Of a stretch of DNA of 64,000 nt, positions 16,398-60,025 are shown in pieces. The DNA lies in IMG/VR virus record IMGVR_UViG_3300037258_000145, positions 1 to 64,000 of that record, one strand, 5' to 3'. Position 1 is the first letter of the stretch. Each line of letters begins with the position of its first letter. Under the pieces are notes generated by a model, which was not told where the DNA came from, ran no database searches, and was given only the letters and a program-made list of their open reading frames with translations. Source of the stretch: a virus. A program made the translations under genes and the position numbers.

Positions 16398-17639
16398 TCA
16401 GTACGCCGTGTGTACCGCGTTCGTCACAGTTGCCGAGATGGTCACCGATGGCGAGGCGCTGAGCGAACGGCGGGCCTCGAAAGGAACGGTCTGCATGACG
16501 ATGTCCGACACCTTGGGGTCGACGTTGGCCATCTTCAACAAGCACTTACCCATGGACACCGTGATCCCGTAGCCAGTGGTGGCGTGAGTAGCCGAGAAGG
16601 AGATCGCGGCCTCATTGTGGGCCTGCATGAAGGACCAGAAGCCATAGGTGGAGTCGTTGAAGGTGTCGAACACCACATCGAACGAGCCGTTGACATGCAA
16701 GGCCGTGGACGGGTTGAACTGCAACTCGACGTTGCCGTTGAGGGTGTAGGTCGGCTTCAGGCCGTTGTCGATCGACAAGTTGAAGTTGGTCGGGGACTTG
16801 ATCTGGCCCCCGGCGTAATCCACGATGAACTCACTGAAGACAAAGGGCGGCTCGTCGACGATCGTCACCGCGCTCGGGCTGGTGAGCAGAGCCACGGACT
16901 GGGCGATCATGTCGCATGTCATCGACAATTCGGTGTTGGACGCCTGGCCTTTCAGGTCGAACTTGTTGACGCGAGCGCCGGCGAACTGGAGTGACTGACT
17001 GGCGCCGATGTTCTTTTCCACCGTCAGGCTCGGGATGTTGGTGATCCCAGATTCCACGATCAAATGGGTAAACGGGCTCACGACCGAAATGACTGCGGCC
17101 GCGGTGAGGTGGTTGTAAACCAAAGGGGCGTCCAGGGTTAGGACGTTGGTGGCGACGTTGGTGACCAACCGGCACTCGGCTGTGAGTGGAGTTGACGGGG
17201 TGTTGACGTCGATCTGGATGACGGTGGTGTTGGCCACGATCCCGGTCGCCGAGGTCACCGTGACCGTTGTGGCCCCTGCCGAGACGCCACCGTTCAGGGT
17301 GGTGGTGACTCCTCCGCCTGCGGTACCGGTGACGCCGTAGCCGGGCGAGCCGTCCAAGCCGATAGCCGCCGTGAAGAACAAGATGCCGTTGGTTGGGAAC
17401 ACTGGGCCCTCGACGCCACCAGCGTCCTTCTCCTCGCCATACAAACCGAAGGTCTGGAGGTCGCGGGTCCCGATCATCAGTTCGGGATAGAACAGACCGG
17501 GGTCGGTGTCCATCGTGTTGCCCGTCATGGGCAAGTCCTGGGTGGGGACTACCGGAGTGCCGAAGGTCGCCTCCTTGGCCACACCAGTAGCTGAAGCAGT
17601 GCCGAGCTTTTCTGTGAACAGGAAACCAGGTGATGCCAG
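16398..17639 (-). CDS. major tail tube protein; CTG start
   Basis: GVAKEATFGTP, SLTVEK, GARVN, LSIDNGL tube motifs; frame open to GGGAGG-CAT-CTG (17639) with TAA just upstream. Confidence 0.85.
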   Translation of the reverse strand: MASPGFLFTEKLGTASATGVAKEATFGTPVVPTQDLPMTGNTMDTDPGLFYPELMIGTRDLQTFGLYGEEKDAGGVEGPVFPTNGILFFTAAIGLDGSPGYGVTGTAGGGVTTTLNGGVSAGATTVTVTSATGIVANTTVIQIDVNTPSTPLTAECRLVTNVATNVLTLDAPLVYNHLTAAAVISVVSPFTHLIVESGITNIPSLTVEKNIGASQSLQFAGARVNKFDLKGQASNTELSMTCDMIAQSVALLTSPSAVTIVDEPPFVFSEFIVDYAGGQIKSPTNFNLSIDNGLKPTYTLNGNVELQFNPSTALHVNGSFDVVFDTFNDSTYGFWSFMQAHNEAAISFSATHATTGYGITVSMGKCLLKMANVDPKVSDIVMQTVPFEARRSLSASPSVTISATVTNAVHTAY

Positions 17640-17649
17640 ATGCCTCCCT
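17637..17649 (-). promoter_or_regulatory. SD-CAT-CTG initiation motif (tail tube)
   Basis: AGGGAGG CAT CTG, in frame. Confidence 0.8.
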
Positions 17650-17996
17650 TAGACCGCTGTCTCGGCGGTGGTGTCGGTTTTGTCGTCGGTCTGCGCCTTG
17701 GCGTACGCATCACTCGTTGAGGGCCAGCGGTTCGGCGGGACAGCGGGAGGTGCTGGCGTTTCGTCTTCAGCCTTGGGGAACACTGGGACGTCGTTGACGT
17801 CGACCTCGTACCACCCCGGGCTAGCGGCTAACTGGTCGGCGTACTGGGCCTGGTTCTCTTGGCTCTCATCGTAGGTGACGCGCTGGCCTCGGATGCCCTC
17901 AGGGTCGTCCTCGGAGGGGGAATGGGGGCCGTCGACGAATCGCTCCAAGTGGTCTTTCAACAGCACGCCGGGACCCGACCTGCGAAAATATCTCAC
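17649..17996 (-). CDS. hypothetical virion-region protein, probably leaderless
   Basis: GTG 8 nt after TAGGAT (18005-18010). Confidence 0.6.
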   Translation of the reverse strand: MRYFRRSGPGVLLKDHLERFVDGPHSPSEDDPEGIRGQRVTYDESQENQAQYADQLAASPGWYEVDVNDVPVFPKAEDETPAPPAVPPNRWPSTSDAYAKAQTDDKTDTTAETAV

Positions 17997-18047
17997 GGCC
18001 CTGAATCCTAGCCCACGGTAGCGGGAGGCATGCGGACCGCCCTGGCC

Positions 18048-18065
18048 AGTCGCGCGCGTGCGACT
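18048..18065. repeat. palindrome B, copy 2
   Basis: AGTCGC GCGCGT GCGACT. Confidence 0.95.
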
Positions 18066-18093
18066 CAATACGCGCGGTGACCGCGCGCTTTCA
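18066..18093. repeat. palindrome A, copy 2 (abuts palindrome B)
   Basis: CAATA CGCGCGGTGACCGCGCG CTTTCA. Confidence 0.95.
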
Positions 18094-57666: not shown

Positions 57667-57696
57667 GTAAGCAACCTTAGCGCATTTGCGACGGGG

Positions 57697-57942
57697 TCAG
57701 GAGGGCGAAAGTAGTTCGCCCGCAGGGTGCCAGACCGAATCCGGACCGGTGTACCCACCAGATGGCGGGGCGACCTTGCCGGCAGCGTGCGCTTCGGCCC
57801 AGACAGCATCGGCATGGATAGCGGCGTCGGCGATCTCTTGGTCCGTGGCGTCAGGGGAAGCGACAAATTGCGTTTGCGGCGAGCCGAACGGAGCGGCTTG
57901 GCCAGGAGATAGGAATTGGGGAATGGCAGGTTCAATGGTCAT
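57697..57942 (-). CDS. hypothetical protein
   Basis: Directly after the terminase gene. Confidence 0.5.
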   Translation of the reverse strand: MTIEPAIPQFLSPGQAAPFGSPQTQFVASPDATDQEIADAAIHADAVWAEAHAAGKVAPPSGGYTGPDSVWHPAGELLSPS

Positions 57943-57951
57943 GCCGTCAGC

Positions 57952-59808
57952 CTAACGCCCTGGAAAACCGGACGGGGGCTGTCCTTGCGCTTTGCGTTCT
58001 TCGTCGGTCGGAGGTGCGTACACGCTGGCCCATCCACCTGTTGAGCGAGGTTTGGGCTTGGGTACCAGGACGGGAGGCGCGCCGTAGACCTGCATCTCTT
58101 CGGCCTTGGCCTTCAGTGATTCGGTCAGGTCTTCGCACTCGGCGGCGAGCTTGCCGCAACTGCACCGACCGGCGCCTAGGAGGTAGGCATCCTGGTAGTG
58201 CTGAGGCTTTTCGCCGCGCTCCTCGGCTGCTACGCCGGCGTAGAAGTCAGCCCAACTCATGCCGCCCGCGGCCGCCCAATATGCTTGAACCACCGCGTCG
58301 CCATCATCAGGTGACCGGCCGAGTCGTTTCTTGATGTCGTCCTTGGACTCTATCTGGATCCGGGCTCCGCTGATCTCTCGTTTGCGAGCTGCCACCAAAT
58401 CGCCGGTCAGGCGATCGTCGGGGGGTAGAGCCATGTCAAGCTCAGCCGAGGGATCCAACATCTCGCGCAACGACCACCATGCAGCGGCCCGGACATTGAG
58501 CGCCGAAATTTCCCCAGTCGCATCACGCCATTTGGTTGCGCCGCTGCCGTGGAATGCCACGCAGGGCTTACCGATCACCCGGAGATGGTCGTAGACGCCC
58601 GAACCGATGCCATCGGCGTCTACGACCGCCTTGGGGTCGCCGTGGGCTTCCTGGATGGCAGCTACCTTGTCAGCCAGAATCTCGAGGTTGTCCGTATAGG
58701 CGTCTCGGCGCAACTCGATGATCGCATTACCCTGTCTCAGGGCGAAGACGCTCTTATCACCGCCGGCCCGGGCGACGTCGACACCGATCACGTGGAGGAC
58801 TTCGCTGTGACCGAGCACGCGCGCCGTACCAAGAGCAGGGTCGATCTTCGCTCCGTTGCCGCCCAGACGTGAGCCGTAAAGCTCCAACCAACGGGCATTG
58901 GCTGCTTCCACCCATGACAGCGGGATCACCCCGTCGGCGTCGACGGATGCGAACTCGCCGAGGGCCCGGTTCTTGAATAGGGCGCTGTCCTCGCCCCACA
59001 ACCGTCCAACCTGATCGACCCATTCCTGAGTAACCCGGCCAGCGGCGATAGCGTCCGACAGGGTGACCTGACGCGTCCACCAGTTCTCAGTACCGGGCTT
59101 GTGGCTCTGGATGTCGTAGAACCGGCCCACGGGCTCGCCAGGGGTTGAGACGGCCAGGGCGTAGGCGTTAGTTCCCGACTTCTTGCCACCGGTCGAAAAA
59201 GCGCCCTCGGCCGAGTCAAAGAAGGCGTCGGGGATACTGCGGGCCTCGTCGAACACGTACAGCAACTCATCGGCGTGGGCGCCTTCCAGCGCGCTCGGGT
59301 CACCGACGGCCATGGCAAAGGCCAGACCGGTGCGAAGTTGGATCGACAGCTTGAGCAGTTCGGCATTCATCTTGAACGGCTCCCGGCCCACCTTGTCCCA
59401 ACGCACCCGGCGCGTCCACTTGTGGATCTCAGGCCACAGGTAGTGGATCAACTGGCCCCATACGCTGGCCGTCGTCGGTACTTTCCAGTCCGCTCCGATG
59501 GCGTCGCGGGTCACCGAGAACCACAGGATCGTCAAAGCCGCGATCGTGCTCTTGCCTGAACCATGCAACGAGCGCACACACACCCTTCGCTCGTCGGCCA
59601 GATGCCCGAGAATGTCCTCCTGGTACGGAGCTAGACCGCCACCCTCAGGCCAGGAAATGCAGTCGTGACACCAACCCACGGGATCATTGAGGTAACGCTC
59701 TTGCTTGGCTCTCTCGGCGCTTCGGATGCGGCCCGCCGCGGCTAGAGCGCGCTTGCGAAGCTCGGGAGGTAGGACGGTTAGGTCTAGCGGGACAGCCTTA
59801 GTGGGCAG
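57952..59808 (-). CDS. terL: terminase large subunit; CTG start
   Basis: Walker A HGSGKS, Walker B YVFDEA, STP, IGVDVAR, VDADGIG, RSPDDGDA; frame extends 43 codons to CAT-CTG, restoring the RY.NDPVGW motif. Confidence 0.93.
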   Translation of the reverse strand: MPTKAVPLDLTVLPPELRKRALAAAGRIRSAERAKQERYLNDPVGWCHDCISWPEGGGLAPYQEDILGHLADERRVCVRSLHGSGKSTIAALTILWFSVTRDAIGADWKVPTTASVWGQLIHYLWPEIHKWTRRVRWDKVGREPFKMNAELLKLSIQLRTGLAFAMAVGDPSALEGAHADELLYVFDEARSIPDAFFDSAEGAFSTGGKKSGTNAYALAVSTPGEPVGRFYDIQSHKPGTENWWTRQVTLSDAIAAGRVTQEWVDQVGRLWGEDSALFKNRALGEFASVDADGVIPLSWVEAANARWLELYGSRLGGNGAKIDPALGTARVLGHSEVLHVIGVDVARAGGDKSVFALRQGNAIIELRRDAYTDNLEILADKVAAIQEAHGDPKAVVDADGIGSGVYDHLRVIGKPCVAFHGSGATKWRDATGEISALNVRAAAWWSLREMLDPSAELDMALPPDDRLTGDLVAARKREISGARIQIESKDDIKKRLGRSPDDGDAVVQAYWAAAGGMSWADFYAGVAAEERGEKPQHYQDAYLLGAGRCSCGKLAAECEDLTESLKAKAEEMQVYGAPPVLVPKPKPRSTGGWASVYAPPTDEERKAQGQPPSGFPGR

Positions 59809-60025
59809 ATGGTTTCCGGTGCTGAGCAGCGTTGATGCAGGTTGCGAAGTGGCTCAGGAACCTACGGCCCGGAGGATCGGACGCCGTGGCCACATGGACG
59901 TTCTCGCCGTCAGGATGTAGGACCAGGTTCCCGTTTAGGGCGGGTTGGGAGTCGATCGGCATGGACTTACCGGTGGAGGTCTTCACCCATCTGACGGGGG
60001 CTGAGCATGACTTGCAGACGCTCAC
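59798..60025 (-). CDS. small Cys/His phage protein
   Basis: CKSC.A.V.W..T..GK.MP.D...SHFATC. Confidence 0.7.
   Translation of the reverse strand: MSVCKSCSAPVRWVKTSTGKSMPIDSQPALNGNLVLHPDGENVHVATASDPPGRRFLSHFATCINAAQHRKPSAH
59806..59817 (-). promoter_or_regulatory. CAT-CTG initiation motif (terminase)
   Basis: GGAAAC CAT CTG, in frame, weak SD. Confidence 0.65.

Follow-up and report, generated by a model that had tools for sequence, protein, structure and literature searches.

Probable CUG initiation behind a close Shine-Dalgarno sequence in virion genes of an uncultured soil phage

The locus studied here raises the question of which codon opens the virion genes of a phage, and whether their initiation calls for a mechanism of its own. 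The window, a 64,000-nt stretch of DNA (positions 1 to 64,000 of IMGVR_UViG_3300037258_000145), belongs to the complete 87.7-kb genome (62% G+C) of an uncultured soil phage, in which the 11-mer GGAGGCATCTG or a close variant precedes ten sites. The original prediction held that nine genes initiate at a CTG preceded by CAT, and that this may constitute a start-codon switch dedicated to virion genes. Our analysis indicates that initiation at CUG in these genes is very probable; it neither demonstrates a dedicated switch nor requires one.

The motif, its frame and the coding signal

All nine predicted CAT-CTG sites were found in place with the expected second codons (Table 1), and the list was extended by a tenth copy (25604) and a weaker eleventh CAT-CTG (55573), both of which had been missed. 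Six copies of GGAGGCATCTG are exact, five on the minus strand (17637, 25154, 25604, 26931 and 31728) and one on the plus strand (55715), and two further copies are variants, GGAGGTCATCTG (22289) and GGAGGGCATCTG (38179). The GGAGG-CAT-CTG 11-mer is in excess over shuffled controls: allowing up to one mismatch, nine matches were counted, two of which (5898 and 20168) are unrelated near-matches, against 1.70 ± 1.06 in 100 dinucleotide shuffles, none of which reached nine. CATCTG by itself was not enriched in the window (42 occurrences, 33 ± 5.6 expected). In seven of the nine genes GGAGG lies 3–4 nt before the CTG, the exceptions being 41050, where the Shine-Dalgarno (SD) sequence reads GGCGG (41048), and 59808, the terminase CTG, which has no more than GGAAAC in front of it (59806). 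Hexamers do lie upstream of the CTG sites, as had been described; rather than TANNNT boxes at six of the nine, they are really -10-like TAGG[CA]T sequences at five. The genome has 18 copies on the minus strand, five of them just upstream of CTG sites. At 25179 the TAG of the hexamer also serves the upstream gene as its stop.

Nine of the ten motif copies are in frame with open reading frames of 116–1174 codons and stand 3–29 codons past an in-frame stop. No in-frame ATG, GTG or TTG lies between this stop and the CTG in eight of the nine genes; the exception is 26933, where GTG 27011 overlaps the previous stop as GTGA and leaves the start of the gene ambiguous. The first canonical start was indeed found 4 to 83 codons downstream of the CTG. 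Judged from G+C at the three codon positions (GC1/2/3), the coding signal begins at the CTG: the values are 0.61/0.54/0.72 from the CTG up to the first canonical start (271 pooled codons) and 0.59/0.52/0.76 in the gene bodies, against 0.63/0.65/0.55 in the stretch that runs from the upstream stop to the CTG (71 codons). For the 22291 gene, GC3 reaches 0.86 over the 83 codons preceding its first canonical start, and the corresponding 50 codons of the 31730 gene give 0.66/0.42/0.78. The CTG class consists of virion and packaging genes and one membrane gene, and the genes checked outside it use the ordinary starts ATG, GTG or TTG, in line with the original prediction.

Table 1. Initiation sites, genes and associated features in the window
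Feature	Position	Strand	Remark
GGAGGCATCTG initiation site, CTG 17639-17637	17637..17647	-	CTG 3 codons past in-frame stop
Tail tube-like/minor tail gene, 413 aa from CTG	16398..17639	-	phrog_290 match, residues 13-409
GGAGGTCATCTG initiation site, CTG 22291	22289..22300	-	motif variant
Fibre-like gene, 1174 aa	18767..22291	-	first canonical start 83 codons downstream
TAGGCT, -10-like hexamer	22311..22316	-	10 nt upstream of SD; putative function
Similar -10-like hexamers	25174-25179, 26951-26956, 31758-31763, 41088-41093	-	putative function
GGAGGCATCTG initiation site, CTG 25156	25154..25164	-	exact motif
Fibre/spike gene, 709 aa	23027..25156	-	homologue N-termini
GGAGGCATCTG and mini-ORF, 15 codons	25559..25614	-	stops 1 nt short of GTG 25557 (gene 25177-25557)
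GGAGGCATCTG, CTG 26933 of gene 26439-26933	26931..26941	-	rival start GTG 27011
GGAGGCATCTG initiation site, CTG 31730	31728..31738	-	exact motif
Gene with head-decoration-like domain, 534 aa	30126..31730	-	phrog_2647
GGAGGGCATCTG initiation site, CTG 38181	38179..38190	-	motif variant
Major capsid protein gene, 662 aa from CTG	36193..38181	-	conserved NPF region ahead of first canonical start
GGCGGCATCTG initiation site, CTG 41050	41048..41058	-	one-mismatch motif, GGCGG
Head gene upstream of capsid gene, 950 aa	38198..41050	-	phrog_21715, residues 10-153 to profile 4-141
GGGGA-CAT-CTG mini-ORF (CTG 55573), 11 codons	55538..55576	-	weak evidence
GGAGGCATCTG initiation site, CTG 55723	55715..55725	+	exact motif
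Membrane-like gene, 116 aa, first of plus-strand unit	55723..56073	+	weak DUF4381/DUF7311 matches only
GGAAACCATCTG, CTG 59808	59806..59817	-	weak SD; overlaps end of upstream ORF 59798-60034
Large terminase gene, 618 aa from CTG	57952..59808	-	phrog_2

Homologous N-termini and start codons in related phages

Homologues begin at the CTG or within a few codons of it for six of the nine genes (17639, 22291, 25156, 38181, 41050 and 59808), and alignment of the terminase, capsid, 41050 and tube homologues gave N-termini matching the CTG or adjacent codons, as had been anticipated. The closest correspondence is at 25156, where homologue P0272 begins MFTPIVVTGTYL and the phage gene reads LFTPIVVTGTYL, so that the M of P0272 falls exactly on the L of the CTG; by a count made by eye, the alignments of some 69 of the 150 relatives listed begin within the first 12 residues of the relative and opposite query residues 1–9. 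Alignments of the tube-like gene begin at residue 1, the terminase homologues P0004 (MPQPVPLDLSVL...) and P0002 (VPAAPPIDLS...) begin within one codon of the CTG, and the 22291 homologue of the related locus L128 carries an ATG one codon past the equivalent position. A conserved NPF region of the capsid protein lies upstream of its first canonical start. PHROG and tblastn alignments of the 41050 product begin at residues 5–13 and the canonical GTG comes only at codon 24; it had originally been named a prohead protease, and the matches obtained for it here were to PHROG only. For 26933, 31730 and 55723 no informative homologue was found, a search for one covering the N-terminus of the 31730 product included.

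These alignments bear on the proposal that the CTG is not a start at all, the true starts being the downstream GTG or TTG, or the CTG being a misassembled or miscalled ATG, and the motif being a signal of another kind, for instance a site bound by a protein or RNA. Public gene calls do take downstream starts, giving 541, 621, 463 and 674 aa for products of 618, 662, 534 and 709 aa from the CTG, and the motif copy at 25604 (mini-ORF CTG 25606) is out of frame with gene 25177-25557. Against this stand the coding signal described above and the conserved N-terminal residues upstream of the canonical starts. An error in the letters is countered by a second assembly, of run X1, with identical letters at seven sites, although X1 may be the source sample and the assembly is then not independent, and by relatives from many samples that have CTG at the homologous starts. 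We regard the proposal as already largely refuted and very improbable.

The relatives also reveal which codons occupy these positions. Across 80 distinct contexts of three virion gene families, in which starts were assigned heuristically and a few (L122, L110) are doubtful, we counted GTG 33, CTG 23, ATG 10 and TTG 9. The tube relatives (22 contexts) have GTG 11, CTG 6, TTG 3 and ATG 2; the 41050-like relatives (35 contexts) GTG 15, CTG 10, ATG 5, TTG 2, ATT 1 and none 2; and the capsid relatives (23 contexts) CTG 7, GTG 7, TTG 4, ATG 3 and ATC 2. Because GTG, CTG and TTG replace one another at the same virion-gene starts, CTG is interchangeable with GTG and TTG. At the 109 sites of related loci with a strict GGAGG followed by 3 nt, GTG (20) was followed by TTG (6), ATG (6) and CTG (5), with other codons at three or fewer each. 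The starts of the tube, 41050-like and capsid genes lie 3–4 nt past GGAGG in the relatives too, behind spacers that include TTT, CGT, CCT, TGC and TTC besides CAT, and one phage may pair the same spacer with both TTG and CTG (TGC in L095, TTC in L091). The short spacing had been taken as unusual, and together with the invariant CAT as a sign of a dedicated mechanism; it is in fact typical of the phage family, whose members combine it with various spacer sequences and with any of GTG, TTG and CTG, which argues against such a need. A T at position -1 precedes all ten CTG sites of this phage and 23 of 23 CTG starts of relatives, compared with 24 of 33 GTG, four of nine TTG and three of ten ATG starts.

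How CUG could be read

In our preferred reading, to which we assign a probability of roughly 70%, these genes undergo near-cognate CUG initiation with the host initiator tRNA. Host fMet-tRNA (anticodon CAU) would read CUG despite the first-position mismatch, which would be compensated by a full GGAGG SD only 3–4 nt upstream and by the U at -1, which could pair with A37 of the initiator tRNA to give a four-base UCUG contact. The sequences themselves show the 11-mer and its reading frame, the N-termini of homologues, the exchange of start codons across the family and the constant U at -1; an initial methionine, the contact with the tRNA and the expression level would follow from this reading. 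In E. coli, a U at -1 is reported to pair with A37 of the initiator tRNA and to raise initiation, the effect being subtle and measured on AUG contexts (PMC10018350). The constant U at -1 here is like that case; it differs in that a mismatched codon would presumably depend on the pair.

Several features sit less easily with this reading. The 3-nt SD-to-start spacing is below the E. coli optimum. CUG initiation in E. coli is only 1–2% of that at AUG (10.1101/063800), and a low-output CUG fits poorly with a major capsid protein. Moreover, an unconstrained first base should give a mix of NTG codons, but the phage has CAT-CTG at every site, a uniformity that hints at some constraint.

Could the codon instead be tolerated through coupling to the preceding gene? 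An upstream stop lies close to the CTG at 17639 (9 nt), 25156 (18 nt) and 38181 (14 nt), an overlap occurs at 59808, and the mini-ORFs of 25606 and 55573 end at the GTG of the next gene, the latter through a GTGA in which its stop overlaps GTG 55541, a codon in the portal frame. All of this would suit re-initiation only, in which ribosomes ending the upstream gene restart at a nearby CUG without new 30S binding, relaxing codon choice. However, 31730 lies about 320 nt past the previous gene and beyond a terminator-like hairpin, 41050 is preceded by about 275 nt of intergenic DNA, and 55723 heads a divergent unit. Since all three carry the same motif, coupling is unlikely to be the general cause, and we consider re-initiation improbable.

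Phage-borne initiation factors, which the original prediction had put forward as possible means, were searched for as well. ARAGORN returned no tRNA gene in the window or in all 87,683 bp, also at the permissive -ps setting, and Rfam gave no match at gathering score over 87,885 bases; a CAG-anticodon initiator encoded by the phage is therefore excluded. Nor was there any match at E ≤ 1 in six frames to IF3_C (PF00707), IF1 (PF01176) or S21 (PF01165), a search that covered IF3 through its C-terminal domain and was positive in the control genomes (12–14 genomes), so that a phage homologue of IF3, IF1 or S21 is not supported. Most of the phage proteins scanned belong to no known family.

The last finding leaves some room for a late translational switch, whereby ribosomes of the uninfected cell would make little use of short-spacer non-AUG sites (the GGAGGCAUCUG site), and efficient use would have to await a drop in initiation fidelity upon infection, caused for instance by IF3 being lost or being inhibited by an unrecognised phage protein. 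Initiation would then be the step that sets the timing of virion synthesis or gives it an advantage over host mRNAs. Consistent with this, the motif is restricted to the class of genes described above, ATG makes up only 10 of the 80 virion-gene starts, the uniform CAT-CTG suggests a specific constraint, and the six ATG genes with a strong GGAGG have spacings of 3–10 nt (five of them 5–10 nt) against 3–4 nt in the CTG class. On the other hand, the genome holds no IF3, IF1 or S21 homologue, tRNA or known RNA family, GTG and TTG, both of which IF3 accepts, are used most often within this class of sites, the timing of late genes is normally set by transcription, and none of the findings is specific to a switch. 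We consider it unlikely.

E. coli hda and yfjD and the rep gene of RepFIB plasmids have documented CTG starts that serve low expression and were confirmed by start-codon mutagenesis or N-terminal analysis (PMC3531124, PMC11983097). As in those genes, the CTG stands behind a ribosome-binding site and is routinely mis-annotated at a downstream GTG or TTG. Those are single genes, whereas about ten genes of one phage, including major capsid, tube and terminase, share one conserved 11-mer here; the RepFIB authors argue that CTG keeps expression low, and here the design runs through a phage family. The AUU start of infC, the gene for IF3, serves autoregulation through IF3 discrimination. That start is likewise non-canonical and its use depends on initiation fidelity; unlike infC, no feedback loop or link to IF3 was found here, CUG is a first-position mismatch, and GUG and UUG alternate with it in relatives. 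We found no published account of this CTG-start design.

For the phage family, which probably infects Actinomycetota, GGAGG-CAU-CUG would be the local form of an inherited class of initiation site, in which the main virion genes use GUG, CUG or UUG far more commonly than AUG, always close behind the SD. It is conceivable, though doubtful, that this class (GGAGG, 3–4 nt of spacer with U as its last base, then an NUG codon other than AUG, here only CAU-CUG) acts as a translational gate on virion genes, opened when a factor that sequence does not yet reveal alters the ribosome or its initiation fidelity during infection; if true, this would explain both the avoidance of AUG and the single fixed spacer-plus-codon word of each phage. 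CTG starts are surprising in abundant virion proteins, and gene finders miss them, with the result that virion proteins are called truncated.

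CTG codons at the heads of the virion genes

All nine CAT-CTG sites of the original prediction, in which virion genes start at CTG in a fixed Shine-Dalgarno (SD) context, were recovered exactly as described, but a tenth copy of the motif (25604) had been missed. Six sites are exact copies of the 11-mer GGAGGCATCTG, two further sites have one additional base separating the SD from CAT, one carries GGCGG, and the terminase site has GGAAAC only. When up to one mismatch was allowed, nine matches were found, two of them unrelated near-matches, against 1.70 ± 1.06 in shuffled sequences, and none of 100 shuffles reached nine. 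CATCTG by itself showed no enrichment, and the signal is therefore the SD-CAT-CTG word. For eight of the nine genes, the stretch from the preceding stop to the CTG holds no in-frame canonical start, and the first such codon lies 4-83 codons 3' of the CTG; the gene at 26933 has a competing candidate, GTG 27011, in a GTGA overlap with the previous stop. RNA folding found no structure common to the ten sites, and a loose SD scan within this genome proved too noisy for use.

An assembly slip as the source of the CTG codons was largely ruled out by a separate Logan assembly of soil run X1, possibly the source sample itself, which is identical over 21500-41400, a stretch holding seven sites. The listed contigs of a second soil run, X2, covered no motif site.

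Composition, homologous N-termini and existing gene calls, three lines of sequence evidence, agree in pointing to CTG as the probable start, and support CUG initiation. The 271 codons from the CTGs to the first canonical starts have G+C contents of 0.61/0.54/0.72 at the three codon positions, which resembles the 0.59/0.52/0.76 of the gene bodies; the 71 codons upstream of the CTGs have 0.63/0.65/0.55. Composition is the one line of support for the decoration-like gene at 31730. Homologues of the fibre gene at 25156 and of the terminase start at or near the CTG position, and those of the tube-like, capsid, 22291 and 41050 genes are consistent with it. Specifically, P0272 (78% identical to the 25156 product) has MFTPIVVTGTYL at its N-terminus where this gene, read from the CTG, gives LFTPIVVTGTYL, and about 69 of 150 among the matches listed, counted by eye, start within a few residues of that position. 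The terminase relatives P0004 (MPQPVPLDLSVL) and P0002 (VPAAPPIDLS) begin at most one codon from the CTG (LPTKAVPLDLTVL). Alignments of the tube-like protein extend from residue 1, the capsid protein has a conserved ..NPF.. region well upstream of its first canonical start, and the sole N-terminal homologue of the 22291 fibre has an ATG one codon past the equivalent position. For the head/scaffold-like gene at 41050, alignments start at residues 5-13, the first canonical codon being number 24. Public gene calls of this genome give proteins of 541, 621, 463 and 674 aa, versus 618, 662, 534 and 709 aa when read from CTG. In the closest relatives the N-termini of the called capsid proteins are ragged, as one would expect were a canonical start missing from these phages too.

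The 15-codon ORF opened by the copy at 25604 stops 1 nt before the GTG of the gene below. A +1 shift at CCC-AGG would be an alternative to termination-reinitiation at this GTG (25557). Only four of 32 short ORFs opened by CATCTG end at the canonical start of a long ORF, two of these without an SD, and coupling through such mini-ORFs is a weak proposition. As pure speculation, a minus-strand transcript that crosses the one motif copy on the plus strand would bear 11 nt complementary to the initiation sites of the late genes.

Features of the window and of the remaining genome
Feature	Position (strand)	Observation
CTG, tube-like gene	17639	
CTG, fibre gene	22291	
CTG, fibre gene	25156	
CTG	26933	
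CTG, decoration-like gene	31730	
CTG, capsid gene	38181	
CTG, head/scaffold-like gene	41050	
CTG, membrane-like gene	55723 (+)	
CTG, terminase gene	59808 (-)	
Tenth motif copy	25604	out of frame with gene below; opens 15-codon ORF
Mini-ORF at tenth copy	25559-25606	ends ...CCC AGG TGA; main gene in +1 frame
Eleventh, weaker site, GGGGA-CAT-CTG	55573	11-codon ORF overlapping GTG 55541 in portal frame
Plus-strand motif copy	55715-55725 (+)	the only one; divergent region upstream of portal gene
Portal-NUDIX protein	51546-55583 (-)	1345 aa; Phage_portal match at residues 312-443, below Pfam cut-off; NUDIX domain at residues 1019-1142, E 1e-19
TAGG[CA]T near starts	41748, 18010, 42074, 57954, 3838, 63159 (-)	6-8 nt 5' of GTG or ATG; at 57954 TAG doubles as the stop codon of the terminase gene
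11-nt word GTCTAGGCTTG	22311-22321, 25174-25184 (-)	upstream of two fibre genes
Polar element of ~29 nt	5365-5379, 18072-18086, 32035-32049, 48393-48407, 55587-55601; genome 65383, 74126, 85846	eight copies; coding strand GAAAGC-GCGCGGTSACCGCGC-GTATTG; perfect 7-1-7 palindrome, asymmetric flanks; seven in one orientation, 74126 inverted; 32035 copy scores as terminator-like hairpin

Start codons and the base at -1 in related phages

The terminase and capsid proteins served as queries to retrieve 173 related loci. In these, homology and an SD heuristic that gives canonical codons a bonus were used to place the starts of three virion genes; a few assignments are doubtful, and the resulting counts are tabulated below. 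The closest terminase (TerL) and capsid relatives (P0002-P0004, P0122-P0127) lie on contigs outside this set; capsid relatives at 70-76% identity are absent from it, the nearest locus being 62% identical. The tube protein had no match in a single-protein scan of viral contigs, nor by tblastn against isolated phages.

Start codons at distinct contexts in related loci
Gene	Distinct contexts	GTG	CTG	TTG	ATG	Other
Tube	22	11	6	3	2	
41050-like	35	15	10	2	5	ATT 1, none 2
Capsid	23	7	7	4	3	ATC 2
Terminase (more distant phages)	18	4	1	3	9	ATC 1

Typical sites in the relatives are GGAGGTTT-GTG, GGAGGCGT-GTG, AGGAGGTAA-TTG, AGGAGGCCT-CTG and GGAGGTTT-CTG, and a TTT spacer ahead of CTG occurs among these loci. 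Together with the codon counts, these sites indicate that close spacing of SD and start characterises the family, with CTG standing where relatives have GTG or TTG; the earlier suggestion that such spacing argues for a dedicated mechanism is not supported. A stricter count that made no use of homology, confined to related loci and to ORFs of at least 150 codons that followed an exact GGAGG after a 3-nt spacer and lacked a canonical start further upstream, likewise placed NTG codons on top (GTG 20, TTG 6, ATG 6, CTG 5; others at most 3 each). The exact word is rare, GGAGG(N0-1)CATCTG matching twice in about 900 kb of TerL loci and GGAGG(N0-2)CATCTG once in capsid loci. Judged from these comparisons, it is the design that is common to the relatives and not the CAT-CTG word. 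A given phage tends to hold to a single combination of spacer and codon, here CAT-CTG, and in two loci (L095 and L091) the same spacer precedes TTG and CTG within one phage. Two others (L126 and L110) have a capsid gene that appears to start at ATC behind the spacer preceding CTG in their other virion genes, L126 having CCTCT-ATC versus CCTCT-CTG.

The base at -1 is T at all 10 sites of this phage. Among the relatives it is T at 23/23 CTG, 24/33 GTG, 4/9 TTG and 3/10 ATG starts, so that U at -1 is stricter with the weaker codon. Pairing of U(-1) with A37 of the initiator tRNA, which gives four-base pairing, is backed by high-throughput work in E. coli (PMC10018350). In these phages U at -1 may likewise contact A37 and compensate for the mismatched codon, and a stricter U with weaker codons is what such a contact would predict.

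Candidate mechanisms and genomic setting

Of the dedicated factors originally proposed, an initiator tRNA with a CAG anticodon is excluded, since the whole genome contains neither a tRNA gene nor an Rfam family. A six-frame search returned no homologue of IF3_C, IF1 or S21, all of which matched in control genomes, and an infection-dependent switch is unproven. Coupling to the upstream gene is very unlikely to be the general cause, given the layout at three genes: about 320 nt and a terminator-like hairpin precede 31730, about 275 nt precede 41050, and 55723 is first in a divergent unit. Overall the original prediction is partly supported, in its CUG initiation but not in its dedicated tRNA, the switch being unproven.

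[quoted passage not shown] It has 62% G+C, derives from soil metagenomes and carries nearly all genes on the minus strand. Part of the terminase gene matches Actinoplanes phage phiAsp2 at 68% nucleotide identity, and the only further similarity to isolated phages at the nucleotide level consists of short matches to Streptomyces phages. Relatives of its proteins are found in records that bear the labels Streptomyces, Arthrobacter, Actinoallomurus and one Actinobacteria MAG, those of the capsid and TerL including P0215, P0203 and P0088 (Arthrobacter, Actinoallomurus and Streptomyces genomes). From these matches the host is probably an actinobacterium. Pfam scans of 20 further proteins revealed a portal-NUDIX fusion, a DNA methylase, helicases, an amidase and a Gam-like protein, and among these 20 no translational function.

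The -10 boxes reported upstream of the CTG sites are present, but their form is TAGG[CA]T. This hexamer has only 22 copies in the genome, with 18 on the minus strand. Of those 18, five precede the SD of a CTG site by 9-29 nt, and at 25179 the TAG doubles as a stop codon. Several others stand 6-8 nt before GTG or ATG, as at leaderless genes, this being the spacing expected of leaderless mRNAs in actinobacteria. If the hexamers were promoters, which is unproven, fibre mRNAs would begin 1-4 nt before GGAGG. A sigma-70 consensus scan of 31500-42500 and 55300-56200 found no promoter. The repeated word GTCTAGGCTTG points to duplication of the upstream regions or to a promoter shared by the two fibre genes, and the ~29-nt element is a possible terminator or operator ('stoperator'-like).

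Probable CUG initiation in the virion genes

Documented cases of CTG as a start codon are E. coli hda and yfjD and RepFIB rep; the RepFIB authors argue that CTG there sets low expression and put CTG-started genes at 0.024% of annotated genes in model genomes (PMC3531124, PMC11983097). CUG reporters in E. coli reached 1-2% of AUG (10.1101/063800). In full-text literature outside subscription journals, we found no account of phage virion genes that start systematically at CTG. A phage with CUG ahead of its capsid, tube, fibre and terminase genes puts a known mechanism to a new use: in contrast to hda, yfjD and RepFIB rep, the codon here heads genes whose products are the most abundant of the phage, and relatives show it again.

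Gene callers drop 35 to 77 residues from these proteins, and the shortened calls carry errors into phage protein families, predicted structures and N-terminal motifs. At homologous sites the family also offers a natural series of ATG, GTG, TTG and CTG starts, which is useful experimentally. These findings leave two readings: CUG works efficiently in this sequence context or in this host, which would amount to a testable rule of start selection (a strong SD, a short spacer and U at -1), or virion synthesis is deliberately throttled or gated by the phages.
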